Below are positions 1,821-31,457 of a stretch of 32,000 nt of DNA, one piece after another (the stretch's first letter is position 1; each line of letters begins with the position of its first letter). The stretch covers positions 1 through 32,000 of the forward strand of contig NZ_LGHJ01000017.1 of assembly GCF_001306055.1 (NCBI RefSeq). Direction: 5' to 3'. The notes beneath the pieces are model-generated. The model ran no database searches. It saw only the letters and a list, made by a program, of their open reading frames with translations, and was not told where the DNA came from. Source of the stretch: Bellilinea caldifistulae (GTDB taxonomy: Bacteria; Chloroflexota; Anaerolineae; Anaerolineales; Anaerolineaceae). The position numbers and the translations under genes are program-made.

Positions 1821-1848
1821 TTTTTCCCTCCACTCCTGATCAAAAGGT

Positions 1849-3093: not shown

Positions 3094-3137
3094 GATCCTC
3101 CTCCAAAAAATTTTCTGGGTGATTCTGTCAAATCATC

Positions 3138-4880
3138 TCAACTGGCGGAAAGTTTTTTCATCCGCTCCAAAATGCTGGCCAGTTTTTCGTTACCACCAGC
3201 CGGTGGCCGCCAATCTACCTGGATAACAGGGGTTTCCTGAGCGGTGAGATTTTCGGCAAACGATTCGAGCCCGACATTGAAGGCTTTGACCGGCTTTTTA
3301 AGTATTTCCAAATCCACCGGTGCAGCCGACGACTGCGCTTCATCCAGCGGCTGGTTGAGCGCCTGGATAATTTGACCGGCATAGCGTACGGCGGCTTCAT
3401 TGCTGGTTTCCACCCACGCTCCGCCCTGTTTCAACTGGCGGATTTGATGACTGAGTTTTTGCGGGTCTTCCTCCGTACCTGTGCAAACGACCACCACTTC
3501 CAGATAGCGCCCGGCTTTTTCGGCTTTGGCTTTGGCTTTGGCTTCGGCAATCGCCGGGCCAAGTTCGCTGGCCGGGTCGGGATGCGAACCGAAACCAATC
3601 ACCACATCCATCAAAATCACCGCCACCTCGGGGTCATTCGCCTCCTCCATCAAACGCCGAATACGCAGGTCGTTATCCATCATCGGGTGCAGGCGGCCGA
3701 CCGTGAACTCGTCTTCGCCCAGGTCTACAATGGTATGCTCAACGCTCACCAGCGAGTCTTTGAGTTTGTTCTCCTTGTTGATGGGCGCATTGGCATACAC
3801 TTTTGGCACATATTCGGTCAGCAGGTGCTGGGCCTCGTAAGCCAGTGTGCCGCCGGAAAACAGACCCCGCAGGTATTTTTGGCCGGGGGCAAATCGTTCC
3901 AGTTTCAGATCCGGTTCGACCTCCAGCACGGGCGGGCTTTTAGCAAGCTCAACTGCCAGCGCGGCTGCATCATCCAGCCCGGAGGCAAAAAACAAATTCC
4001 CCACCCGCCGCGAAATCGGGGTACGTCCAATAAAGTTGACCACTACCGGTTTACCGGCCTTACGCGCCACCCGCAGCACCTGATCAGCCACTTTGGGGGA
4101 AGGCGGCTTGGACACCAGCACAATCACTTTGGTATCCGGGTCACGGCTGAGAGCATCCAGCCCCATCAGGAAGGTCACGCCTCCCACTTTTTCGGAGAGA
4201 TCCCGCCCGCCCGTGCCAATTCCAAAGGTCATACCGCCACCCAGCTGGTCAATGCGGGAGGCTACCTGCTGTAAACCGGTGCCGGCGGCTGCGACCACAC
4301 CAATCGGCCCGCGCCGGACTTTGTTGGCGAAACCCAGACCGATGCCATTAATCATCGCAGTACCGCAGTCCGGACCCATGACGAGCAGACCCTTCTGAGC
4401 TGCCTCCGCTTTTAAAGAAATTTCCTCTTCAACGGGTACATTATCGCTGAAGAGGAAAACGTGCTTGTTGAGCCGTAATGCTTCGCGGGCGACACCGGCG
4501 GCATAACGGCCAGCCACCGAAATCAACACCCAGTTGGCATCCGGCATCATACTCTGGGCGCCTTCCAGACTGCGCGGCCGGTAATCCTGCTGGATGCTGG
4601 ACTTGCGCGCCGAGAGCAGCTCGTCCACTCGTTGGAGGGCATCACTGGCAGCCCGTTCATCGCCAGCTCGCACCACAATCACCAGATCATTTTCCTTGGC
4701 CTGTTCCACCTCGGTGGTTACCAGATTGACCCGAACGAGCAATTCTTTGTTCGTAGGGGTACCCATAATCACGCCGGCGTCTTCGACACCGGGCAAGTCC
4801 GCCAGTGACCGCTGCAGCTGCATCAAAACGGCTGAATCGTAGTAAACACCGCTGCGAATTTCGGCTTTAATCACGCTCAT
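3138..4880 (-). CDS. fdrA: FdrA family protein (acyl-CoA synthetase / succinyl-CoA-synthetase-alpha-like)
   Basis: 580 aa. Long collinear matches to E. coli FdrA as I recall it (SVAGRYAA...FSDNVPVEEEISLK...KGLLVMGPDCGTAMI; VIGFGSHPDPA; LAGGNEKLASILERM at the C-terminus). GGAG RBS before the ATG. Confidence 0.85.
   Translation of the reverse strand: MSVIKAEIRSGVYYDSAVLMQLQRSLADLPGVEDAGVIMGTPTNKELLVRVNLVTTEVEQAKENDLVIVVRAGDERAASDALQRVDELLSARKSSIQQDYRPRSLEGAQSMMPDANWVLISVAGRYAAGVAREALRLNKHVFLFSDNVPVEEEISLKAEAAQKGLLVMGPDCGTAMINGIGLGFANKVRRGPIGVVAAAGTGLQQVASRIDQLGGGMTFGIGTGGRDLSEKVGGVTFLMGLDALSRDPDTKVIVLVSKPPSPKVADQVLRVARKAGKPVVVNFIGRTPISRRVGNLFFASGLDDAAALAVELAKSPPVLEVEPDLKLERFAPGQKYLRGLFSGGTLAYEAQHLLTEYVPKVYANAPINKENKLKDSLVSVEHTIVDLGEDEFTVGRLHPMMDNDLRIRRLMEEANDPEVAVILMDVVIGFGSHPDPASELGPAIAEAKAKAKAEKAGRYLEVVVVCTGTEEDPQKLSHQIRQLKQGGAWVETSNEAAVRYAGQIIQALNQPLDEAQSSAAPVDLEILKKPVKAFNVGLESFAENLTAQETPVIQVDWRPPAGGNEKLASILERMKKLSAS
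3522..3545. repeat. Hexanucleotide microsatellite (GGCTTT)x3 + GGCTTC inside fdrA
   Basis: ggctttggctttggctttggcttc. On the minus strand it encodes the AKAKAKAE(K) linker of FdrA. It stays in frame. Confidence 0.9.
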
Positions 4881-15508: not shown

Positions 15509-15850
15509 TCAATCCTGCGGATGTACAACCAGATACGGCTCAAGGGTTTCTTTCAAGCGTTGCAAGGGCTGAAAACCGCTCATCCGCTTGACGGCCTCGC
15601 CGTTTTGGAACAGGATCAGGGTCGGCACACTCAGCACCATGAACTGCATGGCAAGGTCTGAAGCCTCATCCACATCCACCGATAAAATTTCCAGACGGTC
15701 ACCCCATTCCTGACTCAGGCGGGCAAGCTCGGGTTCCAGTCGCTTACAGGGACCGCACCAGACCGCCCCGAACTCAACCAGTACCGGTTTTTCCGTGCCA
15801 AGTACCCGTTGTTCAAACTCCTCTTCCGAAATGGTTTCGATTTCTTTCAT
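15509..15850 (-). CDS. trxA: Thioredoxin
   Basis: WCGPCK active site. Start placed at ATG 15850, 8 nt after GGAGG at 15859-15863. A minus-strand TATAAT at 15886-15891 makes the ORF-track start at 15883 unlikely. Confidence 0.85.
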   Translation of the reverse strand: MKEIETISEEEFEQRVLGTEKPVLVEFGAVWCGPCKRLEPELARLSQEWGDRLEILSVDVDEASDLAMQFMVLSVPTLILFQNGEAVKRMSGFQPLQRLKETLEPYLVVHPQD

Positions 15851-15943
15851 TCGCATTTCCTCCACTTCAACTAATGGTATCATTGATTATACTCCACGTG
15901 TCAAGACAACAATTCCATTTAGCAAAAAGATAACCAAACCTTA

Positions 15944-17035
15944 ATGAAACTTCAACTTCCCCATGGTCATCTTGACTTTCCCGCCTTTCTGCCGGACGCA
16001 ACTCTGGCGGTAGTGCGTACAGTCGATTCGCGTGACCTGCGCGCCTGCGGTATTCCGGCTCTGATGATGAACGCCTTTCACCTCATGCAAAAGCCGGGTT
16101 CCAGCGTGATTCAGGCTTTGGGCGGCCTGCACCGGATGAGCAACTGGGATCGCCCAATCTTTACCGATTCGGGTGGTTTTCAGGCTTATTCGCTCATCCG
16201 TCAAAATCCGCGCTTCGGCAAAATGGACGAACGCGGAATCACCTTTCAGCCGGAAGGCGGCCAGCGTAAATTCCTGCTCACACCGGAAAAGAGCGTTCAA
16301 CTGCAAATCGGCTATGACAGCGATGTGGTCATCTGTCTGGATGATTGCACCCATGTGGAAGCGCCCCGCAGCGAGCAGGAACTCTCTGTGCAGCGCACCA
16401 TTGCCTGGGCCAAGCGCGCCCGGCGCGAATATGATCGTTTGATGGAACAAAAGAAACTGACCGGAGGTCAGAGACCGCTCATTTTTGCGGTCATTCAGGG
16501 CGGAGGCGAACTTGACCTGCGCCGTCAATGCGCCGATGCCCTGTTAGAAATTGGTTTTGATGGCTACGGCTTCGGCGGTTGGCCGTTGGACTCTTCCGGA
16601 AGTCTACTGAGCGAGATTCTCGAATATACCCGCCAGTTAGTCCCAGCCCAGTATCCCCTCCACGCCCTGGGAATTGGGCATCCGCACAACGTGGTAACCG
16701 GCTGGCAGCTGGGTTACAGCATTTTCGACTGCGCCATGCCAACCCGTGATGCCCGTCATGGCCGTTTGTACACCTTCACCAATCCTCCCGGACAGGATGG
16801 CGGATTGAACGGCAACTGGCTGGAATACCTCTACATCAACGACGAACGCCACATGCGATCCAGCCGCCCCATCTCCGAGTGGTGCGACTGTCCGACCTGC
16901 CAGCAATATAGCCTCGGCTACTTACGCCACCTGTTCAAGATCAACGACAGCCTCTTTTTAAGGCTGGCAACCATCCATAATTTGCGCTTTATGACCCAGC
17001 TGACCGAGCGCATCCGCCTGAATTCCCATGCCTGA
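15944..17035 (+). CDS. tRNA-guanine transglycosylase (TGT) family protein, divergent
   Basis: 363 aa. TDSGGFQ, IFDCAMPTRDARHG, Zn motif CDCPTCQQYSLGYLRH, IHNLRF. Substrate-pocket segments differ from E. coli Tgt as I recall it (FLPDAT vs FMPVGT; GFGGWPLDSSG vs AVGGLAVGE; LHALGIGHP vs YLMGVGKP). Confidence 0.8.
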   Translation: MKLQLPHGHLDFPAFLPDATLAVVRTVDSRDLRACGIPALMMNAFHLMQKPGSSVIQALGGLHRMSNWDRPIFTDSGGFQAYSLIRQNPRFGKMDERGITFQPEGGQRKFLLTPEKSVQLQIGYDSDVVICLDDCTHVEAPRSEQELSVQRTIAWAKRARREYDRLMEQKKLTGGQRPLIFAVIQGGGELDLRRQCADALLEIGFDGYGFGGWPLDSSGSLLSEILEYTRQLVPAQYPLHALGIGHPHNVVTGWQLGYSIFDCAMPTRDARHGRLYTFTNPPGQDGGLNGNWLEYLYINDERHMRSSRPISEWCDCPTCQQYSLGYLRHLFKINDSLFLRLATIHNLRFMTQLTERIRLNSHA

Positions 17036-17840
17036 GCCGGTGGACATTGATGCCCTGATTCGCGCCGTACAGGCCAACCCGCGCTACGCCGCCATAGACC
17101 CCGGCTTGATTCGCGGGTTAATTGAACGCTATCAGAGCAGCATTCACCAGCCGCGTGAATTGATTAAGGCTGTGCGCAATAAACTTCATCAGGTTGGCGG
17201 GGCTTATCTGGAAAAGCCAATAGACTATGCGAATTGGGGCGAACGCCTTGCAATCCTGCCCCGTGACCTGCATCATCCCCAGGTCAAAGAATTTTGCCGA
17301 CAAATGATGGCGCTGCACGCCTCCACCCGCGAACGCCTTCCAATCCTCGACCGGTTTTATGCGGAAACCCTCACCAGTCTTCAGCCCATTCATTCCATCC
17401 TCGATCTGGCTTGTGGGCTCAACCCGCTGGCTCTACCGTGGATGCCGGTCAACCCCGCTACCCAAATTTACGTTTGCGACATTTACAGCGACCAGATTAA
17501 CTTTTTACAGCAATTTTTCAACCATTTTGGCATCCATGGGCAGGCAACCCTTTGCGACCTGACCCGCAGTCTGCCTCAACAGTCGGTTCAGGTGGCTTTC
17601 CTGCTCAAATCCATCCCCTGTCTGGAGCAATTGGATAAGACCATCGCCACACGTTTGCTGCACGGCATTCCCGCAAAATACTGGCTGATTTCGTTTCCGG
17701 CTCACAGTCTGGGAGGGCGCGGCAAAGGGATGCGCCAGCACTACCGCCAGCACTTTGAGGAACTGATTCGCGGTTGGGCGGTACAATTGCGGTCTTTTGA
17801 ATTCCCCGGTGAACTGGTTTTCCTGCTTTCCCCTGCCTGA
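17028..17840 (+). CDS. FmrO/Rmt-family 16S rRNA (guanine1405-N7)-methyltransferase-like protein, copy 1
   Basis: 270 aa. HASTRERL, DLACGLNPLALPW and SFPAHSLGGRGKGM closely match recalled RmtB motifs (HASTKERL, DIACGLNPLAL, SFPTRSLGGRGKGM). 8-nt overlap (ATGCCTGA) with the TGT gene. Confidence 0.8.
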   Translation: MPEPVDIDALIRAVQANPRYAAIDPGLIRGLIERYQSSIHQPRELIKAVRNKLHQVGGAYLEKPIDYANWGERLAILPRDLHHPQVKEFCRQMMALHASTRERLPILDRFYAETLTSLQPIHSILDLACGLNPLALPWMPVNPATQIYVCDIYSDQINFLQQFFNHFGIHGQATLCDLTRSLPQQSVQVAFLLKSIPCLEQLDKTIATRLLHGIPAKYWLISFPAHSLGGRGKGMRQHYRQHFEELIRGWAVQLRSFEFPGELVFLLSPA

Positions 17841-17938: not shown

Positions 17939-18229
17939 ATGGAAAACCAAGTCGAAATCAGAAATACACTCAAGACCAATCCACTGGCAATTGCCAGCCT
18001 GGTTCTATCCGCCGGCGGTTTCAGCTTCCTCCCTCTGATCGGAAGTATCGCCGGCATTGTGACCGGGTACATGGCACGTCGCGAGATACGCGAGAATTCC
18101 CACCTCTACAACGGCGAGAGCCTTGCCAAAACGGCGATCATCCTCGGATGGATTGGGATTGTGCTGCCAATCGTGATCCTCACCTTTGGCATACTCTTCA
18201 TGTTTCCTGCGACGACGATCTTCCGCTAA
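17939..18229 (+). CDS. DUF4190-like small membrane protein, paralog 1
   Basis: 96 aa, two TM segments flanking a charged loop (GSIAGIVTGYMARREI...GESLAKTAIILGWIG). AAGGAG RBS. Confidence 0.65.
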   Translation: MENQVEIRNTLKTNPLAIASLVLSAGGFSFLPLIGSIAGIVTGYMARREIRENSHLYNGESLAKTAIILGWIGIVLPIVILTFGILFMFPATTIFR

Positions 18230-18246
18230 TGACGGGCTGACCTATG

Positions 18247-18324
18247 AACGGGAATGGGTTGAGGAAATTTCCTGTGTTTATCCCTCGTTGGAGATGACCA
18301 AAACCCATTCCTGGATCCCGTTTT
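18247..18324 (+). other. Long interrupted hairpin with T-run between the DUF4190 paralogs
   Basis: GGAATGGGTT (18251-18260) pairs with AACCCATTCC (18302-18311). The stem is extended by AACG/CGTT across a 7-nt bulge. A GGAAATTTCC palindrome sits in the apical part at 18263-18272, and TTTT follows. Confidence 0.25.
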
Positions 18325-18391
18325 CCCAAAAAGATAAAAAAACAAGGTTAAAATAAACTTGTCTGCACACTCATACGAAAGAAAAAATCTC

Positions 18392-18697
18392 ATGGAAAGA
18401 ACCCCGCAAATTGAACATGTTTCCTCTCATCCTCTCGCCATTGTTGGCCTGGTGCTTGGTATTCTTGGGCTGATCGGCGTGTTACCGTTGGTCGGCTCAA
18501 TTGGGGCATTGATCGCCGGCAAAATGGCTCAAAAGGAAATTCTGGAAAAACCAGAACTTTACACAGGTGAGAATTTTGCCCGCGCCGGCATCATCATGGG
18601 ATGGATAGGACTCGCCATTGGGGTTGTCATTTGTGTGCTGGTAGCGGTTGCTTTTCTGTTCTTCATGCCGGTTGGCATACAAACCATGCCTCAATAA
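18392..18697 (+). CDS. DUF4190-like small membrane protein, paralog 2
   Basis: About 50% identical by eye to paralog 1 (GSIGALIAGKMAQKEI...GENFARAGIIMGWIG). Start is ATG 18392, with TTG 18359 as an alternative. Confidence 0.65.
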   Translation: MERTPQIEHVSSHPLAIVGLVLGILGLIGVLPLVGSIGALIAGKMAQKEILEKPELYTGENFARAGIIMGWIGLAIGVVICVLVAVAFLFFMPVGIQTMPQ

Positions 18698-18703
18698 CCC
18701 ACG

Positions 18704-19804
18704 ATGAACCTGCACAGCCGCTGGCAACAATTTACGAATCGTTTTCTGAACCGTCTGCGCTGGCGGCTGACCCTGAGTTTCACGCTGGTCACCCTGGCGG
18801 CAATCTTAATGGCAGCCTGGTGGAGCTTCCTGGCGCTGAATGTATATCTTTCTCGCACCATGCCGGATCTGTTTACCGGCTCATCAGCCAGCCAGATGCT
18901 TCCCGGTCTCCTTCAACTGGCAGGACAGGCTCTGCTGGTGCTGATCATTCCGGCTGTGCTGGTAGGAACGTTGTTCGGTTTTTTAACCGCACGCTGGCTG
19001 GAAAGCCGGCTTGACCATTTGCGAAACACCACCGAGGCATGGGCAAACGGCAACTTCAAGCCCCGCATCAACGACCTTGCTCAGGATGAAATTGCCCGCT
19101 TCGGCAGGCAATTGAATCAAATGGCTGCGGAACTGGAAACCCTGATGTCAACCCGTCAGCAGTTAGCTGCCATGGAAGAACGGAATCAGCTCGCCCGCGA
19201 CCTGCACGATTCGGTTAAGCAAAATCTGACTGCGGCCATCTTGCAGCTGAACACCGCTGCAGTGCTGATCGCAACCGAACCTCAGGCTGCCCAACAGACC
19301 CTTCAAAGAGCCGAGGATCTTGCAGTGCAGGCTCAGCAGGAACTCACCAATGTGATATTAGAACTTCGTCCGGCGATGCTGCACCAAAAGAACCTGCCCG
19401 GTGCATTGAAAGATTACCTGCAACGATGGCAACAGCAAAATCAAATTGTCGTGGACTTCACTCACACCGAAAACCTCCAGCTGACATTCAGTCAGGAATT
19501 AACCCTTTTCCGAATAGTGCAGGAAGCCCTTGCCAATGTCATCCGCCACAGCAGTGCAACCCATGTCAACGTTTCTCTTGATTGCGACTCGCACCAGATC
19601 ATGTTGAGAATTCAGGACAATGGCCGCGGCTTTGACCTCAGCCGGTCAGGTTCTTCCGGCTTTGGTTTGAAAAGCATGCGCGACCGGGTGGAAGAAATTG
19701 GCGGTCGGCTGGAGATTGAAAGCAGCATCGGACAGGGAACAACGGTCAGCGCCTCCGTTCCGATCAAACTTGAACCGCGAAATGAGGAAATCCTCAATGG
19801 ATAA
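18704..19804 (+). CDS. Sensor histidine kinase, HisKA_3 (LiaS/DesK/NarX-type), two TM segments with a short loop, HAMP domain
   Basis: H-box LARDLHDSVKQNL, N-box EALANVIRHS, G-boxes IQDNGRGF and GFGLKSM. The loop between the two N-terminal TM segments is only about 20 aa. Confidence 0.85.
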   Translation: MNLHSRWQQFTNRFLNRLRWRLTLSFTLVTLAAILMAAWWSFLALNVYLSRTMPDLFTGSSASQMLPGLLQLAGQALLVLIIPAVLVGTLFGFLTARWLESRLDHLRNTTEAWANGNFKPRINDLAQDEIARFGRQLNQMAAELETLMSTRQQLAAMEERNQLARDLHDSVKQNLTAAILQLNTAAVLIATEPQAAQQTLQRAEDLAVQAQQELTNVILELRPAMLHQKNLPGALKDYLQRWQQQNQIVVDFTHTENLQLTFSQELTLFRIVQEALANVIRHSSATHVNVSLDCDSHQIMLRIQDNGRGFDLSRSGSSGFGLKSMRDRVEEIGGRLEIESSIGQGTTVSASVPIKLEPRNEEILNG

Positions 19805-20462
19805 AACGCCCAACCCAATTACGGTAATTATTGTGGATGACCACGCCGTTGTTCGGCAGGGTTTGATCGCTTTTCTACAAACACAGGAAGACATCGAAAT
19901 CATCGGTGAGGCTGAAAATGGGGCGCAGTTGCTTAAGTTACTCCCCCATAGCGTGCCGGATGTCCTGCTGATGGATCTGATCATGCCGGATATGGACGGG
20001 GTTGAGGCGACCCGCCGGGTAAAAGCCATCAGCCCTCATACGCAGGTCATCATTTTCACCTCTTATTACAAGGATGAACATATTTTTCCGGCTGTTCGGG
20101 CCGGAGCGCTCTCGTATATTTTGAAAGACACCAAACCCGCCGAACTGGTTGATGCCATTCGAAAAGCTTCGCGGGGTGAAGCCGTTCTTCATCCGCGTGT
20201 TGCAGCCCGGCTTGTGCAGGAAGTACAGGGCATACGCAGCGAAACCATCAACCCGTTTTCAGAATTGAGTGACCGTGAGTTGGAAATTCTGCGCCTGATC
20301 GCCAGCGGCATTTCCAATCGCGAGATTGCCGAAGTTCTGTTCATCAGCGAAAAAACAGTCAAGAGCCATGTGAGCAACATTCTCTCCAAACTGCACCTGG
20401 CCGACCGCACCCAGGCTGCCGTTTACGCCTGGAATCAAGGAATTGTCAGACGGGATGAATAA
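19797..20462 (+). CDS. Response regulator, NarL/FixJ family (REC + LuxR-type HTH)
   Basis: VIIVDDHAVVRQGL, LMDLIMPDMDG, LSDRELEILRLIASGISNREIAEVLFISEKTVKSHVSNIL. 8-nt overlap (ATGGATAA) with the kinase gene. Confidence 0.9.
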   Translation: MDKTPNPITVIIVDDHAVVRQGLIAFLQTQEDIEIIGEAENGAQLLKLLPHSVPDVLLMDLIMPDMDGVEATRRVKAISPHTQVIIFTSYYKDEHIFPAVRAGALSYILKDTKPAELVDAIRKASRGEAVLHPRVAARLVQEVQGIRSETINPFSELSDRELEILRLIASGISNREIAEVLFISEKTVKSHVSNILSKLHLADRTQAAVYAWNQGIVRRDE

Positions 20463-21282
20463 AACTGCTTCTGTTTCTGAAGATGAAATTCGCAAATGGA
20501 TTGGAATGCTGCGCGCCATTCGAAAGTATCGCTCGCTGGATTTACCCGATGCCCTCCTGCGCGATTTGATTGTGGAGGAGCTGTCCCGTCATTCCTCTTC
20601 CAGTGAGGCGTTGAAAGCCGTTCGCCGTAAACTCCACAACATCGTTGCCCCTTACCTTGGCGATCCAGACTACACCACCGCCCAAAAAGCCCTGGAGGCT
20701 GCTTTTACCGACGGAAGCCCACAATCTGTCCGAGAATTCTGCCTGTCCATGCTGGCCAGTCACGCCTCCACCCGTGAGCGGATTCCGCTCCTCGATGAGT
20801 TTTACTCCCGTTTGTGGAAAATCACCGGACTACCCCAGACACTCCTTGACCTGGCTTGTGGAATGCAACCGTTTGCCCTGCCGTGGATGGGCTTGCCCAC
20901 CTTGACCCGCTATTTCGCCTATGATCTGCACCGGCCGCGCGTTGATTTGATCAACCAGTTTTTTCAACGGAGCGGCTGCCGCGGTTCTGCCATTCACGAG
21001 GATATTTTGGTCAATCCTCCGCAGATAGAAGCCGAAGTTGCCCTGTTTTTCAAAGAAGCCCACCGTTTTGAACAACGCCGCCGCGGGGCCTGTTTGCCTT
21101 TCTTTCAAGCCCTGCGCGTTCGCTGGCTGCTGGTATCACTGCCAATCAGCAGCCTGAAAGGCACCCGTGATTTAGAAGATCGTCAACGCAGGTTGATGCA
21201 GTCCATCCTTGGCGGTCAAACCTGGGAGGTCACAGAAATCCGTTTTGAGAACGAGTTGGTGTTCTGTATTCAAAAAACATGA
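20455..21282 (+). CDS. FmrO/Rmt-family 16S rRNA methyltransferase-like protein, copy 2 (divergent)
   Basis: HASTRERIP and DLACGMQPFALPW are conserved, but the SLxGxxKGM segment is replaced by SLKGTRDLE. ATG 20455 overlaps the RR stop by 8 nt (ATGAATAA), with TTG 20443 as an alternative start. ATGA overlap with the next gene. Confidence 0.7.
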   Translation: MNKTASVSEDEIRKWIGMLRAIRKYRSLDLPDALLRDLIVEELSRHSSSSEALKAVRRKLHNIVAPYLGDPDYTTAQKALEAAFTDGSPQSVREFCLSMLASHASTRERIPLLDEFYSRLWKITGLPQTLLDLACGMQPFALPWMGLPTLTRYFAYDLHRPRVDLINQFFQRSGCRGSAIHEDILVNPPQIEAEVALFFKEAHRFEQRRRGACLPFFQALRVRWLLVSLPISSLKGTRDLEDRQRRLMQSILGGQTWEVTEIRFENELVFCIQKT

Positions 21283-22772
21283 GCCGTCGTAAAAAAACTT
21301 CCTCAACCGCTCCCTACCCTGCCATTTCAGCACGAGAGACGGCGCTGGAACAATTCCGCGCCTTGCTTGCGCCGGAGGATTTTCAAGCCCTGCTCGAAGA
21401 GCTGGAGCGCCCGCTGTTGCCCGCCTTTCGGATCAACCCACTCAAAACTTCGCCGCAAGCCGTTGCAGACTGGTGCAACTGGTACGGTTGGGAGGTCCAG
21501 CCGGTAGTGTTTTGCCCAACCGGCTGGCAGGTTCGCCAGGCGCGTACACCGCTCAGCCAGACCCTGGAACACCGGTTGGGGCACTACTACATTCAGGATG
21601 CGGCTTCGATGCTTCCGGCAGAATTATTCGACCTGCCAGCGTCTCCCTACCCGCTGATTCTTGACCTGGCCGCTTCGCCCGGGGGAAAGACCACCCACCT
21701 GATCAGCCGCACCCTTGACCGCGGGTTGGTACTGGCCAACGATGCCGGACTCGAACGGATCACCCCACTGCGTTTGGTGCTGCAAAATTGGGGGACGGTC
21801 AATACCGCTGTCACCCGCTTTCCAGCCGAAAAGTTTGGGCGCTGGTTTCCGGCCACCTTCGATTGGGTGTTGCTGGATGCACCGTGCAGCATGCAATCCC
21901 TCCGACCGACCGAATCGCATCCGATGCGGAGCATCTCTCAGCGCGAGCAATCCCATCTGGCACGCCGCCAAACGGCAATGCTCCTCTCCGCCCTGGCAGC
22001 GGTCAAACCCGGCGGTCAGGTGGTCTACTCGACCTGTACCCTCGCTCCGCAAGAAGACGAAGCCGTTCTGGATGAGATTATCCGCCGCCTGCCGTTCAGT
22101 GTTCAAATCAACCCGGTCACCGACCGGCTCCCCGCCCCTGCCCCAGCACTCGCCAATGCGTTTGGTCAAGTCTTCCATCCGCAGGTACAAAACGCCCTGC
22201 GCCTCTGGCCACATCGCTTTTCGACATCCGGTTTTTTTGCGGCCCGCTTAACCCGCACTGGTGAAGTTGAATTACCCATCGAACCGCCACCTGCCCGCCC
22301 CCTGCGCGAAACCGGTCAGGAGCCGCTCAACCGCTCAAACCTGCAAGAGATCACCCACTGGCTACAAAATACCTACGCTTTTGACCTGCTCAGCGTACTG
22401 GAAACCTATCGCTTAGAACTGTGGCACAGCCAGACCTCCGTTTTTGCCGTTCCCATTGCTTTTCTGGAAAGATTCAACGAACTGCCGTGTCAAATGCTGG
22501 GTCTCAAGGTATTGGAAGAAACCCCCGATGGCTGGCAGCCCGCCCATGAATGGGTCAATCGTTTTTTCAATCTCTTTCACGCCGGACGATTAGTCCTACC
22601 GAATGAAATGATGGACGAATGGCTGAAAGGCAAGGATGTTCCCCTGCCGGTTTCCGCCGCTAATCCTCCCGCCGTCTGGTTGGTGTTTGATGAACGCAAC
22701 CGCTTTGTGGGGAGGGGACGCTCCAGTGGTCCCTGGTTGAAAAACCTGCTGCCGCGTCGCCTGATTGGGTAA
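21279..22772 (+). CDS. rsmF: 16S rRNA (cytosine1407-C5)-methyltransferase RsmF-like (NOL1/NOP2/Sun family with C-terminal extension)
   Basis: 497 aa. The architecture is collinear with E. coli RsmF as recalled (EDFQALLEELERPLLPAFRINPLK; YYIQDAASMLP; DLAASPGGKTTH; LLDAPCS; VYSTCTLAPQEDE; C-terminal LKNLLPRRLIG vs LKNSYPRELV). No NusB-like N-domain, so not RsmB-type. Confidence 0.75.
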   Translation: MSRRKKTSSTAPYPAISARETALEQFRALLAPEDFQALLEELERPLLPAFRINPLKTSPQAVADWCNWYGWEVQPVVFCPTGWQVRQARTPLSQTLEHRLGHYYIQDAASMLPAELFDLPASPYPLILDLAASPGGKTTHLISRTLDRGLVLANDAGLERITPLRLVLQNWGTVNTAVTRFPAEKFGRWFPATFDWVLLDAPCSMQSLRPTESHPMRSISQREQSHLARRQTAMLLSALAAVKPGGQVVYSTCTLAPQEDEAVLDEIIRRLPFSVQINPVTDRLPAPAPALANAFGQVFHPQVQNALRLWPHRFSTSGFFAARLTRTGEVELPIEPPPARPLRETGQEPLNRSNLQEITHWLQNTYAFDLLSVLETYRLELWHSQTSVFAVPIAFLERFNELPCQMLGLKVLEETPDGWQPAHEWVNRFFNLFHAGRLVLPNEMMDEWLKGKDVPLPVSAANPPAVWLVFDERNRFVGRGRSSGPWLKNLLPRRLIG

Positions 22773-22780
22773 GAGACGCT

Positions 22781-23755
22781 TCAATCAGAAAGGCTAATTT
22801 CAGCGGTGCGAATGTTCAGCCGGTAGCGCAAACCGAATTGATCCTGAATCAACAGGGTTTCGCCCTCATCCCAGGAAACTGGCAGGTATTGACCCTGCCG
22901 ATTTTCGACAATATAACGCACCACACCGCTGATCAGGTCAACCAGCACAAATGAGGTTTGCATCTCCGCTGGTTGTTGAATATTGCCCAAAATGCCAAAA
23001 GCCAGCCGGCTGTTATCGGGCGCCCAGACCAACCCGCCGGCCTGCCAGTTATCTCCTTGATCCAGCTGCAGTAAGTTTGTGAAGGCAATTTCGCGGAGAA
23101 CCTCCCCCGACAAACTGTGAATGACCAGACGGCCACCCTGCAAAACAGCAAAGGTTTCAACGTCCCCCGCCGCCCGCAACAAACCGCATTCACCGGTTAG
23201 TTGGGTTCTTTCACCGTTTTGCAAATTGACGCGATAAAGACCGCAATCAAATCCGACGATGGTCGGGCTACCATCCGGTATACCATGCTCGGTGTAAAAA
23301 AATTGACTTCCATCTTGGCTCCAGTGGAATTGAGCCGGTAAGGTATAACCCAGCCCAAAGGGGCGTTCTTCATCGAGGATCGGCCAGCGCAACCCGCCAT
23401 CCTTGCGGAACACCGACAGCGAAAGCCGGTAAGTTTCGCCGCTTACCCTGCCATCGGCTGCAACTGGAAAGATGGTGCTGACCTGTACCGTCCATTGACC
23501 ATCCGGCGAGGGGTAAAACCAGTCCTCATGGGTTGTTTTTGGCGGGGCAGGAGACGAAGTCGGGGTTGACCGAATAGCTTCGGTGGATGGGGGCGCCAAA
23601 GTTTCTACCTGGCGAAGTTCAACCGCCGGCGTCGGCGATACCAGTGGAGGTTGAATGACCGCAGTTGGTAGAGACGGCGCAGCCGTTGAACAGGCTGCTA
23701 TTCCGATGCACGCCCCTATCCAGACCAGATTACGCAGCCATTTGGTCATCATCAT
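22781..23755 (-). CDS. Lipoprotein of unknown function, PD40/beta-propeller-like repeats
   Basis: Signal peptide plus lipobox (GIAAC). WSQDGSQFFY and WAPDNSRLAF are repeat-like strings. The start overlaps the rsmE stop (ATGATGATGA). Confidence 0.6.
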   Translation of the reverse strand: MMMTKWLRNLVWIGACIGIAACSTAAPSLPTAVIQPPLVSPTPAVELRQVETLAPPSTEAIRSTPTSSPAPPKTTHEDWFYPSPDGQWTVQVSTIFPVAADGRVSGETYRLSLSVFRKDGGLRWPILDEERPFGLGYTLPAQFHWSQDGSQFFYTEHGIPDGSPTIVGFDCGLYRVNLQNGERTQLTGECGLLRAAGDVETFAVLQGGRLVIHSLSGEVLREIAFTNLLQLDQGDNWQAGGLVWAPDNSRLAFGILGNIQQPAEMQTSFVLVDLISGVVRYIVENRQGQYLPVSWDEGETLLIQDQFGLRYRLNIRTAEISLSD

Positions 23756-24507
23756 CTCCTTTTCGCATAATCCTGTTCTTCAAAAAGGGCCAGCAGTAAA
23801 GCAGCCCCGACAATCGCAGCCGTTTCGGTGCGCAAGATGCGTTTCCCTAAACTCACCGGCAGCCAGCCGGCCTGTTCGGCTGCTTGAACTTCCTCGGCTT
23901 CCCAGCCGCCTTCAGGCCCGATCAGCAAGCCGGCGTGGGCAGCGCTATCCGCTGGTAAAACAGCCGCCGCGCCGATCATCCGTTGGGTTTCACCCTCCCA
24001 CGCCATCAATCCAATCTCAAAGTTTTGCCTGAACGGAAGAAAATCCGGCAGCCATCGCGGTTCATCCAGGCGCGGGATCATTCCCCGTCCGGCTTGTTCG
24101 GCCGCCTCCTGCAAAATTCGTTGCCAGCGGGGATACTTTTCCAGGGCCAATGCAGGATGCTGCACCAGACTGCGCCGGGTGATCAGCGGCACAATCCTGC
24201 TCACCCCCACTTCGGTCACTTTTTGGAGCGTCCACTCAAATTTTTCCCGCTGGGTCAAAGCCAAACCGAGCGTCAGGTGTAAAGCAGGTTCTCGTTCGTT
24301 TTTCTGCCAGCCCAACAAAACCCCGCTTGCTTCTCGTACCGAGAGAGCGGTTAATTCGACTACCGCTTCGTTACCCGAACCATCCAGTGCCATCACCCTG
24401 CAGCCGGGGGTAAGTCGCAAGACTTGCGCCATCTGACGGGCGCACTCCGGTGGAAATTGAACCCGATTCCCCTCAAATGCTGTCGGCGGGATAAAGAAAC
24501 GGTGCAT
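23752..24507 (-). CDS. rsmE: 16S rRNA (uracil1498-N3)-methyltransferase
   Basis: MHRFFIP start typical of RsmE, about 250 aa, C-terminal LLIGPEGGW...E...LG.RILRTETA SPOUT motif. The TTG start at 24549 directly abuts GGAGG and was rejected. Confidence 0.85.
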   Translation of the reverse strand: MHRFFIPPTAFEGNRVQFPPECARQMAQVLRLTPGCRVMALDGSGNEAVVELTALSVREASGVLLGWQKNEREPALHLTLGLALTQREKFEWTLQKVTEVGVSRIVPLITRRSLVQHPALALEKYPRWQRILQEAAEQAGRGMIPRLDEPRWLPDFLPFRQNFEIGLMAWEGETQRMIGAAAVLPADSAAHAGLLIGPEGGWEAEEVQAAEQAGWLPVSLGKRILRTETAAIVGAALLLALFEEQDYAKRR

Positions 24508-24661
24508 ACCCCAATTGTACCTGATGGAATTCGATTTTTCAGGTTTCAACCTCCTGAATTAATTTGAATGAAATTTGTAATCCGTGGGGTGTGTCATTTG
24601 TCGGTACAGATTCGACCCCACATTTCTTAAAATTGAAACATCCCTTCTGGAGATTGTTTGT

Positions 24662-25465
24662 ATGAAAACGGCCAAACTTCGCCCCACAAACCGCATGGAA
24701 GCAGTGACCAGCCGTTGGTGGTTCCTGCTGATTGTCATTTTGATCAGTTTTTTTCCTCTTTATTCCCAACAGCCCTACGACCCGCGCCAAACCTCCGAAG
24801 TCATCAGCGCGGTACTGGCTTCACCGCTGATTTACTCGTTGCCAGCACTCTTTCCTCTGTTCAAAATCATCCCGCTGGCTTTGACCGTCTGGCTATTGTT
24901 TGAGCCGATTAAGGCGCTGCGCTGGTTTGCCCTCTATGCTGCGCTCAATCTGTTCGGAATTGCCTTCTTTCAGAACAGCGCCCTCACCTCCCAGTATGGA
25001 CTGGTGATTATCACCGGAAATGTAATTCTCTTCGGCGCAATCGGCGCAGCATGGCTTGCGGAGGCAATGAATCCCCGCTTAATTTTTTCAACCCGTCCTT
25101 TGACGACCCGGGCTTTGATCCTTGTGCCGTTGATGTTGCTTGCCTTCTGGATGCCGATTCAAACCGAAACTATGCGCCTGAATCTCGATCCAGCATTGCT
25201 TTTTACCAATGAAGCGGGATTGACCGGCTGCATGATGCTACCCCTTTATACCGGCATGCTGGTGATTGCTTACCCTCAGGTTAACCGGGTTTTGCTGCGC
25301 CTGAGCGGCTTCATCGGTCTGCTAATCGCCTTTTTTAATTTACTGACCCATTTTGTTTTTGTGCCTGCCAATTTCTGGATGGGCGTGCTGCATCTGCCGT
25401 TGTTCTTCATCTCCCTGACGGCATTTGTCTTATCGCTGCGGAAACCAACCTCTCAACCGGCCTGA
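24662..25465 (+). CDS. Polytopic membrane protein, unknown function
   Basis: 267 aa with at least 6 hydrophobic segments. GGAG lies 10 nt before ATG 24662. No recognisable motif. Confidence 0.55.
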   Translation: MKTAKLRPTNRMEAVTSRWWFLLIVILISFFPLYSQQPYDPRQTSEVISAVLASPLIYSLPALFPLFKIIPLALTVWLLFEPIKALRWFALYAALNLFGIAFFQNSALTSQYGLVIITGNVILFGAIGAAWLAEAMNPRLIFSTRPLTTRALILVPLMLLAFWMPIQTETMRLNLDPALLFTNEAGLTGCMMLPLYTGMLVIAYPQVNRVLLRLSGFIGLLIAFFNLLTHFVFVPANFWMGVLHLPLFFISLTAFVLSLRKPTSQPA

Positions 25466-25521
25466 ACCAGCCGCCCTGAAATTAACCCAAGCCGCGCGCC
25501 ATCCGGTATAATTGGCGCGGT

Positions 25522-26235
25522 ATGGAAAAATGGGTCAAAGACCTGAAAACACTGGTGGGGATCCAACTGACCGCCCGGCAAATTGCCGCCTTTCAGCGTT
25601 ATGAGGATGAACTGCTGGAATGGAACAGCCGCATGAATCTGACCGCCATCCGCGATCGCGAGGGGATACGCACCAAACATTTCCTTGACTCGCTCAGTTG
25701 TATTCTTGCTTTTCGCGAACGCCCCCCCGAACGTCTGATTGACATCGGCACCGGAGCCGGATTTCCGGGTATTCCCCTCAAAATCATTTACCCGCGCATG
25801 AAACTTACGCTGGTTGAATCGGTTGGCAAGAAGCTGGAATTTTGCCGTCATATCGTTCAAACGCTCAAGCTGGAGGATGTAACCCTGCTCCAGGCCCGTG
25901 CTGAAGCGCTCGGCCAGGATCGCGCCTACCGCGAGCAGTATGACTGGGCAGTTGCCCGGGCGGTTGCCACCCTGCCCGTTTTAGCCGAATATCTACTACC
26001 GCTGGTTGCGCTGGGCGGAAAAATGCTGGCACAAAAAGGAGAAAGTGCCCATACCGAAGCGGTTGCCGCGGAAAAAGCCATCCGCGTACTGGGAGGTGAG
26101 CTCCAGCAAATCATTCCCGTTCTGGTACCGGGCATTGCCGAAGAACGTTATTTGGTCGTGGTGGATAAAGTCGCTATTACTCCGCCCGGTTATCCAAGGC
26201 GGGTTGGCTTACCTGCTCGCCGTCCAATTCAGTAA
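25522..26235 (+). CDS. rsmG: 16S rRNA (guanine527-N7)-methyltransferase
   Basis: NSRMNLTAIRD, KHFLDSL, DIGTGAGFPGIPLKI, 237 aa. Confidence 0.9.
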   Translation: MEKWVKDLKTLVGIQLTARQIAAFQRYEDELLEWNSRMNLTAIRDREGIRTKHFLDSLSCILAFRERPPERLIDIGTGAGFPGIPLKIIYPRMKLTLVESVGKKLEFCRHIVQTLKLEDVTLLQARAEALGQDRAYREQYDWAVARAVATLPVLAEYLLPLVALGGKMLAQKGESAHTEAVAAEKAIRVLGGELQQIIPVLVPGIAEERYLVVVDKVAITPPGYPRRVGLPARRPIQ

Positions 26236-28042: not shown

Positions 28043-29710
28043 CTACGAATTTTCGCCCAATCGTGTCGGATTTTTACCGTTGCTCTTCCCCTGCACCATG
28101 CGGTGATACTCTTCGATCCAATCCGCCAGTTGTTCGTTGATCGAGGCTTCTGCCCGTTCTTCTTCACGCTGTTTGAATTCCATGAAACGTTGGAACAATT
28201 CGCGTTGCACCTCGGACGGCGCCATCACATTGTTGAAAGTCAGGGTCGAGTCGCCCACCCGAATGTAGACCGTGCCAAAGTTTAAGATCAAACCGATCAA
28301 CCCCAGCCGTTCAAAATCAATACTCAAAATATTTTTCAGGGGAGCTGAACGTTTTTGTTCGGTGCCGAGCGGCTTTTTATACACATCAATGATCGTATCG
28401 CGGGTGATGATATAACGGTCGTTCCGCCAATCGAAGTAGTTATATACCAACCAACCCGCTGTAATTGGCAGGAACAAAACCCCAATTACCAGCGCCAAAA
28501 CCGGCGGTAGTGGGAGAATACCAGCGAAAATGGAAATCATGGCCGCTACAACCACAAGTGACAAAAGGAATGGAAGCATCGTTTTCTTAAACAAGATAAA
28601 CCAGTGGGTGCGGTAAATGATGGTACCGTCCTGCTCAACCCGCAGCATGAACAAATCGGATAGGAACTGGGTCAACTTACCGCTCTTGACCACCGGTTTG
28701 ACTTCCTGCGAGGATGGCTGCGGGAGTGGTTCGTCAGCGCCGAGGTTCAAACGCCGCCGGATAATCTGGTCAATCGATTCTAGCCGGGCGCGTTTGCGGC
28801 TGGCTTTGGCCCTCTCGCGCATTTCATTAATCAGATTGACAATCAGGTAGGGCTGAGCCAGCCGCGAAAGGATCAACTCGCCGGTATATGTTCGGACGAT
28901 AATATCCCCATAGCCAATAATTCGTCCCAGTTGGGTGGTTCGCACATCATCAGCCAGCACGGCATCAAGCGGCACTTCCTGCCGGCTGTCGTAGATTAAT
29001 AAAATTTTTCGCAAATAAGCCACCCGACGGTTGGTGACGATCGAATAATCATTGTAAAAATCAACCACCACCCACACCAACCAGCCAAGATTGATCAGCA
29101 CTACCAGCAATAGTAACCCCATCCCCAACGCCGAGCCGCGAAACAGCACCACATCCAGATAAGAAGTAACAATCGTGGTCAACAAGGCCAAGAAAACCGG
29201 CAAAATCAGGCGCAGCACCAGAAAAATGGGATGATGCCTGCCGATGTAGTGAACCACCTCGCGCGGGCCCCGCCAGGGCATACGCGTCCGCATGGCGAGA
29301 TGATAACTGGCAGCCACCAGCCGAAAGGCAGCCTCCACTTTGGGGTATTCTTTTTTCAATTCATCAATCAGTTCGCCGTTGAAGCGCAGCACAATCACAT
29401 TCGTCAGCGCAGTGGCTGTAGCAAGGCGCGGCGGCGGGGTATCCGCCAGAGCCTCTTCTCCAAAATAATCCGGCTCGCTGAGAATGACTTTAATTTCCTC
29501 ATCTTTATAATGGCGCACCAGTTCAACCCGACCGCTGAACAGGAAATAAAAACTTTCCACGGGGGCATCCTGTTCAAAAATTACCTGCTTTTCCTGATAC
29601 AAAAAAGCCTCAACCCTGTTGGCGATCTCCTCAATTTGGGCCGGACTCAGGCTGATGAACAGATGCGACCCGCGCAACAGATCAATCACATCGCTGCGGT
29701 TGACTTCCAT
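28043..29710 (-). CDS. Membrane protein: N-terminal cyclic-nucleotide-binding domain fused to two TM/bacterial-PH (bPH_2, YdbT-like) modules
   Basis: The N-terminus has a cNMP-binding-domain-like pattern (LFISLSPAQIEEIANRV...IFEQDAPVESFYFLFSGRVEL). Two TM hairpins are each followed by YSIVTNRRVAYLRK / RYIITRDTIIDVYK type bPH strings. Confidence 0.65.
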   Translation of the reverse strand: MEVNRSDVIDLLRGSHLFISLSPAQIEEIANRVEAFLYQEKQVIFEQDAPVESFYFLFSGRVELVRHYKDEEIKVILSEPDYFGEEALADTPPPRLATATALTNVIVLRFNGELIDELKKEYPKVEAAFRLVAASYHLAMRTRMPWRGPREVVHYIGRHHPIFLVLRLILPVFLALLTTIVTSYLDVVLFRGSALGMGLLLLVVLINLGWLVWVVVDFYNDYSIVTNRRVAYLRKILLIYDSRQEVPLDAVLADDVRTTQLGRIIGYGDIIVRTYTGELILSRLAQPYLIVNLINEMRERAKASRKRARLESIDQIIRRRLNLGADEPLPQPSSQEVKPVVKSGKLTQFLSDLFMLRVEQDGTIIYRTHWFILFKKTMLPFLLSLVVVAAMISIFAGILPLPPVLALVIGVLFLPITAGWLVYNYFDWRNDRYIITRDTIIDVYKKPLGTEQKRSAPLKNILSIDFERLGLIGLILNFGTVYIRVGDSTLTFNNVMAPSEVQRELFQRFMEFKQREEERAEASINEQLADWIEEYHRMVQGKSNGKNPTRLGENS

Positions 29711-29734
29711 GAGTTAAAGTATATACGAAAATGA

Positions 29735-31444
29735 CTACTTCTTCGCTAAACGGCTCTGTTCCTTTTCGAAAATTCGCCTCAGAATGGCAACACTGGTGGC
29801 ATAGGTCGAGTCCATCCCAAAGTAAGAAAGCGTGCCCGCCCCCAAATTTTTACCTTTGCTCAAGGGAGTATCCGAAGCATAATGGAGAATGCCCAGATCA
29901 AAGGGAACTTCATAAAGATTGACCACTTCATTGATCGGGTGCCGCTTGGGACGAAACATCTCATACACCGCAGAAAGATAAGGGCCGGCTTCCATTTCAA
30001 TATCGGTATAACCTTCGCGGTAAATCACGTCCATGATACGGGCATTTTGTAAAAAGGTACCGTACACGCTGACTGCTTTTTGATTATCTAAAACCGTGCC
30101 GTACAACAAATACCGTGCCACATGCGAGGCATTGAACGCATTCTGGAACAGGAAGGTATTTTCGGAATGTTCATCCTGGACTACATTGGGAATCATCACA
30201 TCCCCAAGCCGGCCGTTCAAGGTAGCCGCCTTTCCCATGATATACACCCCCAAAATAGGATGAACGTGTTCGGAAATTTTGACCAGCAAATTATAGGCAG
30301 CCACCCCAAGGGGATAATCAATGTTCAAAATCAGAGCATCACTGCGTTCCAGCCAGGCAAGTTCGCCGTGTTTAATGCGTGGATCCATCCGAGCCGGGTC
30401 TAAACGGCGCAATTCAATTACCTGAGCTTCCACATCGAAATAATGCTCGCTCGGTATGCGCACAATCCCCAAATTGACTTCATCCATCGCCTGTGCATGA
30501 AGTAACGCTCGCCCTTCGCTGGTCTGCTGATATTTCTTCAAAACATAATACAGGAAGTTCTCCTGACTGGAAGGCACCTGCCCATTGCAAATGCTCTCCC
30601 ACTCGCGCTTGAGATCCTCGTTTTCCTTGCGATCCAGAAAGCGCATCAATTCATCACGATGTTGCAGGGCAAAACCGGTCGTCAGATTAATTAAGGAATG
30701 GGTGTTGCTGGAGACGAAATAAACCGGGCGGCCGGTCAGGATGGGACAGCATCGTTGGATATTATCCCACCAGGCCTGGGTAGCCCGGCGGTAGTCCGCC
30801 AGCGAACCGCTCAGCAGGCGCACCCCAATCCGGCAGCGTTTATGAGCAATCCGCTGTAAATTTGCGTAAAATTCCCGCCCCCACACCGTCCGCAGCCGTT
30901 CGAGGTCTTCCACCGTCATTTCCAGCGTATTAGCCAGTTGCCGAAAGGCATCTTCGTCCTTTGCCAGCGTCCGGGCATTCAGCGGACGCTGCCATCTTTG
31001 CAATAAGTTGTGTAATTTATTCCACTCAATCTGGTAAGCCGTCAGGGTTGGAATAATGTCATCAATATCCGAGCGGCTGGCAATGTAGCAGGCCAGCGTA
31101 TCTTTCCCGTTGAAAAAACAACGCCGGCGGCGAGCGCGCGCCGAAACCGGCTGCCAGTTTTCCACCTGACTGTAACCGTGCTGGTTAAAAACACTGGCGC
31201 TCTGCCCCAAAACCACCGAGCGCACCTCGGTCATGCAATCCGGCAGGCGCAGCGAGCTGTAAATCAGCGCAGAAATGTCCGGAGTGACTTTGCGCGCATC
31301 CGGGTGCAGAGATGAGTTGGTCGCCGCATGAACTTCTTCCAACGAGCGGATTTGAACCTCGGCTGAAGTTCGCAGTAACGAGTAAATGGTACGCAGGTAC
31401 AGGTCAATTTCTTCCGAAGCCGTGCTGGGAACTGTTCTCTCCAT
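29735..31444 (-). CDS. Protein with C-terminal nucleoside phosphorylase (PNP/UDP/AMP-nucleosidase) fold and about 350-aa N-terminal region of unknown function
   Basis: The C-terminus NIDYPLGVAAYNLL...YIMGKAATLNGRLGDVMIP...TDIEMEAGPY...HYASDTPL parallels UDP/Amn core strings (GIGGPS..., IGTTG...GDV, YEMESA, CVSDKPL) as recalled. Start is ATG 31444, with TTG 31474 as an alternative. Confidence 0.6.
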   Translation of the reverse strand: MERTVPSTASEEIDLYLRTIYSLLRTSAEVQIRSLEEVHAATNSSLHPDARKVTPDISALIYSSLRLPDCMTEVRSVVLGQSASVFNQHGYSQVENWQPVSARARRRRCFFNGKDTLACYIASRSDIDDIIPTLTAYQIEWNKLHNLLQRWQRPLNARTLAKDEDAFRQLANTLEMTVEDLERLRTVWGREFYANLQRIAHKRCRIGVRLLSGSLADYRRATQAWWDNIQRCCPILTGRPVYFVSSNTHSLINLTTGFALQHRDELMRFLDRKENEDLKREWESICNGQVPSSQENFLYYVLKKYQQTSEGRALLHAQAMDEVNLGIVRIPSEHYFDVEAQVIELRRLDPARMDPRIKHGELAWLERSDALILNIDYPLGVAAYNLLVKISEHVHPILGVYIMGKAATLNGRLGDVMIPNVVQDEHSENTFLFQNAFNASHVARYLLYGTVLDNQKAVSVYGTFLQNARIMDVIYREGYTDIEMEAGPYLSAVYEMFRPKRHPINEVVNLYEVPFDLGILHYASDTPLSKGKNLGAGTLSYFGMDSTYATSVAILRRIFEKEQSRLAKK

Positions 31445-31457
31445 GTCCCAAATTGTA

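Follow-up and report, generated by a model that had tools for sequence, protein, structure and literature searches.

What does a tRNA-guanine transglycosylase (TGT) with a rebuilt base pocket do, and why does its gene overlap that of a methyltransferase homologous to the 16S rRNA m7G1405 enzymes? Both questions are raised by a stretch of 32,000 nucleotides (nt) of the Bellilinea caldifistulae genome (contig NZ_LGHJ01000017.1), hereafter called the window, which encodes a TGT variant and, directly downstream, the methyltransferase homologue FmrO1. In this work we focused on the residues, the distribution and the genomic neighbours of the variant. It belongs to a subfamily, called GGWPLD here after one of its motifs, which is phylum-wide in Chloroflexota and undescribed in the searchable literature, and its pairing with FmrO1 is real and ancient. 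As to its function, the most ordinary explanation, a lineage-specific Tgt, remains the most likely one.

The variant scored 314.5 bits against the Pfam TGT profile (PF01702) and 315.6 bits against the Tgt equivalog TIGR00430, a marginal pass over the cutoff of 306.75, and the PGAP names of its homologues are mixed, some being called Tgt and others 'family protein'. Its best solved relative in a comparison with the PDB was the Zymomonas mobilis TGT (E 1e-67), the matches to QTRT1 being weaker (E 1e-49). A model obtained with AlphaFold2 (AF2) using 24 homologues as input (pLDDT 87.2, pTM 0.88) was superposed on the Z. mobilis structures with a Foldseek TM score of 0.83 and presented the TGT TIM-barrel fold with its zinc subdomain. 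The protein is shorter than canonical Tgt by about 25 residues at the N-terminus and about 20 at the C-terminus. The extreme E-values and the invariance of its unusual motifs rule out a chance pattern, and the open reading frame (ORF) is genuine.

Other members of the superfamily were considered and rejected. ArcTGT was discarded on a TIGR00432 score of 87.6 bits for a cutoff of 350, on the absence of C-terminal PUA-containing domains and on a match to the structure 1iq8 that covers the core only (E 1e-8). DpdA was discarded on a PADLOC score of 13.9 bits (E 0.004), on a match to 7ui4 of E 1e-4 and on the presence of rRNA methyltransferases as neighbours; Cap10 was ruled out alongside. A defence system was likewise rejected, since this DpdA match was the only one returned by PADLOC, which gave none for the FmrO proteins.

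The initial annotation had described a divergent TGT that keeps the catalytic framework of the family and differs in the segments contacting the base and the RNA. Residue-by-residue alignment with Z. mobilis TGT and superposition of the AF2 model bear this out. The framework is present as TDSGGFQ, LDDC (D156/C158), QGG (Q203), FDCAMPTRDARHG (D280, R286, R289) and C314-x-C316-x-x-C319...H345, the residues conserved in Z. mobilis numbering being D102, S103, Q107, D156, C158, Q203, G229/G230, D280, R286 and R289. The putative catalytic residues D75 and D262 (D102 and D280 in Z. mobilis), the guanine-face residues D133, Q185 and G211/G212 (D156, Q203 and G229/G230) and the zinc site C314/C316/C319/H345 (C318/C320/C323/H349) are invariant in 24 aligned homologues, which are 66-86% identical to the window protein, as are the motifs PDAT, GGWPLD, HALGxGHP and AMPTRDARHGR.

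The altered segments had also been quoted correctly: FLPDAT aligns with FMPVGT, GGWPLDSSG with GGLAVGEGQ and LHALGIG with HYLMGVG. The corresponding substitutions, in Z. mobilis numbering, are V45D, G46A, L231W, A232P, V233L, G234D, E235S, Y258H, M260L, K264H and D267N, and the remodelled subsite of the variant consists of W213-P214-L215-D216 together with D18, H240, L242, H246 and N249. In the Z. mobilis enzyme the Leu231/Ala232 peptide flips, so that either guanine N7 faces its NH or the aminomethyl group of the queuosine precursor preQ1 faces its carbonyl, and Glu235 operates this switch. The canonical preQ1-subsite signature (Leu231/Ala232, Val233, Glu235, Met260) is replaced by W213-P214-L215-D216-x and L242. 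W-P-[LI]-D is fixed across the family ORFs of 80 related loci, whereas the next two positions vary freely, position 235 being occupied by S, G, K, A, N or D. The other unusual motifs recur in nearly all of these ORFs.

The 80 loci were the best of more than 535 found by scanning species-representative genomes with the variant, and were analysed further over 20 kb per genome. Nearly all of them are labelled Chloroflexota. They include Bellilinea (91% identity), other Anaerolineales, Caldilineales, Thermoflexus, Roseiflexaceae, Herpetosiphonaceae and Ktedonobacteria, among the latter Dictyobacter and Ktedonospora isolates; one locus, L070, was binned as Chthonomonadaceae. A protein search returned thousands of relatives, the best 120 of which are all at least 66% identical to the variant and carry names such as Longilinea arvoryzae and Anaerolineae or Anaerolineaceae metagenome-assembled genomes. 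The family is internally 60-90% identical. Judged from these alignments, the variant represents a conserved subfamily under purifying selection and not a decaying gene. Literature searches, which included TGT paralogues, retrieved no description of the GGWPLD subfamily or of a TGT-FmrO operon, and the sole related mention was of uncharacterised Chloroflexi Rmt homologues.

The second question concerns the partner gene. The initial annotation had proposed that the variant is translationally coupled to an N7-guanine methyltransferase. The coupling is supported by the gene junction, and the FmrO family profile and the match to Sgm identify the partner as a homologue of such methyltransferases. 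The TGA of the variant (17033-17035) overlaps the FmrO1 start codon, an ATG at 17028, by 8 nt (ATGCCTGA). According to tblastn searches with the window proteins, an FmrO1-type gene lies directly downstream on the same strand in 73 of the 75 testable loci, i.e. those of the 80 with enough downstream sequence, and most junctions overlap by 4, 8 or 17 nt. A pairing absent elsewhere would have counted against the idea of the initial annotation; the pairing is in fact kept in several classes of Chloroflexota. Upstream of the variant, the window genes for thioredoxin, S9 peptidase and prolyl-tRNA synthetase (ProRS) are retained only in close Bellilinea relatives and are fully replaced elsewhere, which indicates that general synteny is lost at this depth while the TGT/FmrO1 junction is preserved. 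The typical array in Anaerolineales comprises the TGT variant, FmrO1, FmrO2, RsmF, RsmE (in opposite orientation), a Vut_1/YhhQ-family transporter and an RsmI-like TP_methylase; in Ktedonobacteria nothing but the TGT-variant/FmrO1 pair is constant. No FmrO1 adjoins the variant in L068, L070, L081 and L084, representing at least four lineages that all still carry GGWPLD, and this argues against an obligate two-enzyme mechanism. On the 5' side, the variant is flanked by a divergent thioredoxin gene (15509..15883, minus strand). In a scan of the surroundings of the pair, consensus promoters and terminators did not exceed the level expected from shuffled sequence, and no sigma-70-like site was detected in the intergenic region 15884..15943.

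FmrO1 scored 142.7 bits against the Pfam FmrO profile (PF07091) and 205 bits against NF000466 (Rmt_gen), below the cutoff of 250. Its best PDB match was Sgm (E 1e-36, full-length alignment), and it also aligned over its full length with RmtB, ArmA and RmtC. It displays the motifs KLH, LHASTRERLP, DLACGLNPLA, LLKxxPCLE and SLGGRGKGMxxxY, of which KLH, HxSTxER, DxxCGLNP, LKxxPxLE and LGGRxKGMxxxY are kept by 61 orthologues; the S-adenosylmethionine-binding motifs, the C-terminal GGRxKGM and the N-terminal 30S-docking region are thus all present. FmrO2, encoded further downstream, is 32% identical to FmrO1, scored 157.6 bits against NF000466, again below the cutoff, and its 32 orthologues lack the GGRxKGM loop. 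Of the two paralogues, FmrO1 is therefore the one predicted from its motifs to be the conventional m7G1405-type enzyme. FmrO1 was also considered as a preQ1 N-methyltransferase comparable to the phage protein DpdM, and this was rejected, DpdM being a DUF3109/YkgJ protein unrelated to FmrO.

Several of the related loci connect the variant with queuosine. QueA genes were searched by tblastn, the E. coli QueA sequence used as query being confirmed by the match itself. In a Caldilineae locus (L058) the gene order is RuvB, GATase, QueA, TGT variant and FmrO1, QueA lying immediately upstream of the variant, and two independent long contigs (L081/L082 and L084/L085) present RuvB, GATase, QueA and a GGWPLD-type TGT without FmrO behind it. 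With the L058 QueA as a probe, QueA was found to be widespread in Anaerolineae and Chloroflexota metagenome-assembled genomes. QueA acts on preQ1-tRNA; since it needs this substrate, the Caldilineales-type block is a queA-tgt operon of the classical kind, in which the variant takes the place of tgt. Furthermore, in 20 of the 80 loci, including that of Thermoflexus, a Vut_1/YhhQ-family transporter (164 bits) is encoded a few genes away from the variant. Members of this family are known to transport preQ0/preQ1 (PMC5372724). The queA-tgt position and the nearby YhhQ/Vut_1 together suggest that the variant has been kept in the queuosine pathway. The window itself contains no que gene and no second tgt, and tblastn found no QueC, QueD, QueE or QueF near the variant, a weak negative for the 20 kb covered per genome.

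We propose that the variant is a lineage-specific Tgt which has kept the task of inserting preQ1, or a very closely related precursor, at G34 of tRNA and is embedded in an ancient decoding-centre RNA-modification operon; we judge the chances of this proposal being right to be about even. The invariant catalytic and zinc residues, the bacterial TGT fold, the TIGR00430 score and the QueA and YhhQ neighbours favour its first part, and the adjacency of FmrO1, with its full set of Rmt motifs, in 73 of 75 loci together with the RsmF, RsmE and RsmI-like genes favours the second. The chemistry would be unchanged, an Asp nucleophile forming a covalent ribosyl intermediate and guanine being swapped for a 7-deazaguanine base. 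The guanine face would be read as in canonical Tgt, and the difference lies in the subsite for the 7-substituent, rebuilt as Trp-Pro-Leu-Asp. A proline at position 232 offers no amide NH to guanine N7, so that the peptide switch would be disabled and the pocket fixed in its carbonyl-out, preQ1-accepting state; D216, possibly D18, and Trp213 are candidates for contacting the aminomethyl ammonium. Position 235 may be free to vary because a locked pocket needs no Glu235 switch. The preQ1 or close precursor, salvaged via YhhQ where this is present, would be inserted at G34 of GUN tRNAs and passed on to QueA. In Anaerolineales the operon also takes in FmrO2, RsmF, RsmE, YhhQ and RsmI. The coupling to FmrO1 most plausibly ensures co-expression of enzymes tuning the decoding centre, i.e. 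the tRNA wobble base and the top of helix 44, and not a shared substrate; the targets would be the wobble base and G1405, C1407, U1498 and C1402 of the 16S rRNA.

A number of observations weigh against this proposal. Identity of the variant to canonical Tgts amounts to only 34-36%, as against about 50% among canonical Tgts of different phyla. Fast early divergence followed by strong conservation would, as a sequence pattern, be the signature of a specificity shift. The changes K264H, D267N and V45D moreover fall on positions that contact U35 and the ribose pockets, and we know of no queuosine-pathway biochemistry for any Chloroflexota. The adjacency of FmrO1 is far better conserved than that of any other neighbour and exceeds the usual loose cluster of 'translation genes'. 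Finally, one genome with Ktedonobacteria-type synteny (L039) carries a canonical Tgt and the variant-FmrO1 pair 6 kb apart on the same 1.19-Mb contig. This canonical protein is full length (397 amino acids (aa), with FMPVGT, GGLSVGE and FDCVLPTRVARHG), 51% identical to Z. mobilis TGT, 51-52% to the proteobacterial enzyme and 36% to the window protein. More than 120 relatives share at least 79% identity with it, and those that carry names are mostly Tgt from Ktedonobacteraceae. The variant-FmrO1 pair is also common in Ktedonobacteria. In this class the variant would thus be a second TGT, and persistence of a simple redundancy is unlikely. The co-existence of a canonical tgt, which had been raised with the initial annotation, is therefore established for Ktedonobacteria-type genomes.

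The search was extended with the Chloroflexota canonical Tgt. In an exhaustive search of representative genomes the top matches were all about 50% identical and from unrelated phyla. A metagenome scan yielded Ktedonobacterial canonical Tgts without QueA, TGT variant or FmrO in their flanks, and zero further cases on the same contig; QueA was found within 10 kb of none of about 29 such loci, while the same scan also gave queA-tgt loci of other phyla. The Ktedonobacterial canonical Tgt gene is followed by a gene for an LplA/LipB-type lipoate-protein ligase, and not by queA (L039 3114-4307; L086 10001-12023). No QueA adjoining a canonical Tgt in the metagenome sample exceeded 56% identity to the QueA proteins that the L058 QueA had retrieved, which argues weakly against an operon of queA and canonical tgt in Anaerolineae.

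Alternative explanations were also weighed. The variant may be a substrate-specialised isozyme which also acts on tRNA G34 but inserts another 7-deazaguanine base, such as salvaged preQ0 or another base imported by YhhQ; it would complement canonical Tgt where both exist and replace it under salvage only, the linkage to FmrO1 again reflecting co-expression. The co-existing canonical Tgt, the YhhQ/Vut_1 linkage and a 7-substituent subsite rebuilt next to a retained guanine face are consistent with this, and L231W and V233L suggest a smaller pocket, which would speak against queuine and for a small substituent. However, the adjacency of QueA implies that a primary aminomethyl group, that of preQ1, ends up in the tRNA, no queF-type gene for the reduction of preQ0 was seen nearby, and Rfam, applied at gathering thresholds to the window and five loci, detected neither a preQ1 riboswitch nor any other regulatory RNA element. 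We consider this isozyme possible but unlikely. Vertical inheritance could, on the other hand, have frozen an accidental gene order, the pocket changes being neutral drift in an ordinary Tgt. All loci come from one phylum, and elsewhere tgt lies in different operons, queA-tgt being common in the non-Chloroflexota loci, as such an accident would allow. Yet the upstream neighbours have been replaced while the downstream FmrO1 has stayed with its junction kept overlapping, and the changed residues are invariant across classes, unlike what drift produces, so that we hold an accident to be very unlikely.

The remaining alternatives give FmrO1 a part in the reaction. The initial annotation had considered a non-tRNA substrate or a shared or competing target guanine conceivable; no evidence supports this, and the queA-tgt position and YhhQ point to the queuosine pathway. 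That both enzymes would act at position 7 of guanine is an analogy and not evidence for a functional link. A neofunctionalised TGT could nevertheless work with FmrO1 on the same RNA or in sequence, possibly in a complex: it might exchange a guanine in helix 44 of the 16S rRNA, where C1404-G1405-U1406 resembles U33-G34-U35, it might exchange the 7-methylguanine made by FmrO1, methylation activating the glycosidic bond, or FmrO1 might methylate the inserted base. Such a partnership would account for an overlapped adjacency kept in 73 of 75 loci across Chloroflexota classes while the other neighbours vary, for a variant paralogous to canonical Tgt in at least one genome (L039) and for the accelerated divergence and subsequent conservation of the family, and the new Trp and two new Asp of the subsite could suit a cationic ligand. 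However, the lineages without adjacent FmrO1, two of them with the variant beside QueA, do not fit it, FmrO1 resembles a fully conventional 30S-directed Rmt, no TGT-FmrO fusion protein was seen, a 7-deazaguanine in rRNA is without precedent, and DpdM, the one known preQ1 N-methyltransferase, is of another family than FmrO1. We regard it as quite unlikely. The boldest form of this idea is a two-enzyme system acting on one guanine, either by exchange at or next to G1405, by exchange primed by m7G, or by methylation of a base previously inserted into tRNA, which would be the sole task of the variant in Ktedonobacteria, where canonical Tgt would serve queuosine. This appears highly improbable; if true, a system at G1405 would be the first case of a 7-deazaguanine, or of an enzymatic base exchange, in rRNA.

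Table 1. Features of the window around the TGT variant and the FmrO genes.
Feature	Position	Strand	Basis
Divergent intergenic region, 60 nt, presumed operon promoter region	15884..15943	.	ORF map and sequence; promoter inferred
GGWPLD-type tRNA-guanine transglycosylase (TGT variant), 363 aa	15944..17035	+	profiles, alignment, AF2 model
8-nt stop/start overlap (ATGCCTGA), TGT variant/FmrO1	17028..17035	+	sequence
FmrO1, Rmt/Sgm-type S-adenosylmethionine-dependent methyltransferase (16S rRNA m7G1405 family homologue), 270 aa	17028..17840	+	
FmrO2, second, more divergent FmrO paralogue	20443..21282	+	
RsmF/RsmB-type 16S rRNA m5C methyltransferase, 4-nt overlap with FmrO2	21279..22772	+	
RsmE-type (m3U1498) RNA methyltransferase, conserved array member in Anaerolineales relatives	23752..24549	-	

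The features of the operon region are collected in Table 1. In most relatives FmrO2 directly follows FmrO1. In the window the two are separated by a cassette (17939-20462) encoding two DUF4190 membrane proteins, a HAMP/HisKA_3 histidine kinase and a NarL/LuxR-type response regulator, which is found only here and in Bellilinea-type relatives (L001, L002, L006, L007). The stop codon of the response regulator overlaps the start of FmrO2 by 20 nt, suggesting that expression of FmrO2-RsmF is tied to the two-component system. The FmrO2-RsmF pairing recurs in about 38 related loci, and FmrO2 may, judging by its sequence, have a target other than G1405. Small-subunit rRNA methyltransferases are concentrated at 21279-26235 (RsmF-like, RsmE and RsmG/GidB), relatives adding an RsmI-like gene, and most methyltransferases of this segment and of the related loci act on the decoding centre. 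In Ktedonobacteria, RlmN is found near the TGT-variant/FmrO1 pair.

Besides RsmG and ProRS, the window encodes RecF and Def. A 324-aa ORF on the minus strand between RsmF and RsmE (22781-23755) has no Pfam match, and its N-terminus is lipoprotein-like, with a Cys-containing signal sequence and a Pro/Thr/Ser-rich linker. Following RsmE, where Anaerolineales relatives have the YhhQ/Vut_1 transporter, lies a 293-aa ORF (24584-25465), also without Pfam match, whose approximately 7-8 hydrophobic segments resemble those of a polytopic membrane protein and which may have replaced YhhQ/Vut_1 without being homologous to it. On the minus strand at 28043-31474, a DUF6909 protein (803.8 bits, 579 aa) adjoins a 555-aa protein with a cyclic-nucleotide-binding domain. 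At 150-4880, also on the minus strand, are encoded a tandem 'putative cyclase' protein, a homologue of AllG (oxamate carbamoyltransferase subunit) and a CoA-ligase/CoA-binding protein, which probably form a purine/allantoin-type catabolic module unrelated to the TGT.

The interest of these results is threefold. In the GGWPLD subfamily other residues have taken the place of the Leu231/Ala232/Glu235 switch, the best-studied specificity element of TGT, which provides a natural experiment on base selection by TGT. Rmt-type m7G1405 methyltransferases are known clinically as pan-aminoglycoside resistance genes. In Chloroflexota they would be ancient, chromosomal and housekeeping-like members of a decoding-centre modification operon, which bears on the origin of the resistance genes and predicts intrinsic resistance of these bacteria to 4,6-deoxystreptamine aminoglycosides. 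The near-universal coupling of a wobble-base enzyme to a helix 44 methyltransferase, along with a canonical Tgt in one class, raises the question of whether the modifications are interdependent or a new TGT target exists.

Compared with known systems, the variant is closest to the Tgts of Z. mobilis and E. coli (TIGR00430, EC 2.4.2.29), with which it shares the fold, the Asp102/Asp280 pair, D156, Q203 and G229-G230, C158, R286 and R289, and the zinc site. The salt bridge of the Z. mobilis homodimer (K52/E339) is kept in kind as R25/D335, and the genomic association with queA and YhhQ is also that of bacterial Tgt. It differs from bacterial Tgt by L231W, A232P, V233L, G234D and a variable position 235, which remove the peptide switch, by two short insertions, by its operon with an Rmt-type methyltransferase and by its co-existence with canonical Tgt in Ktedonobacteria-type genomes. 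Precedents for a re-tuned 7-substituent pocket with catalysis kept are QTRT1 of eukaryotes and, among bacterial enzymes, the Tgt with which Chlamydia salvages queuine, reportedly described by Yuan et al. in 2019; these enzymes enlarge the pocket (V233G, C158V), whereas the variant keeps C158 and has bulkier residues at 231 and 233. That the TGT scaffold can be repurposed is shown by DpdA and Cap10 of CBASS, which belong to the superfamily and have been remodelled to act on DNA and on a protein N-terminus, respectively, but they are very distant, and no DpdB, DpdC, QueC-like or defence genes lie near the variant. FmrO1 resembles Sgm, RmtB, ArmA and RmtC of the FmrO family over its full length and retains both the K..R..LH helix at the N-terminus and the GGRxKGM loop at the C-terminus. 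It differs from them in being chromosomal and phylum-wide in Chloroflexota, outside any aminoglycoside biosynthetic cluster or plasmid, in scoring below the NCBIfam Rmt cutoff and in being accompanied by the loop-less paralogue FmrO2.

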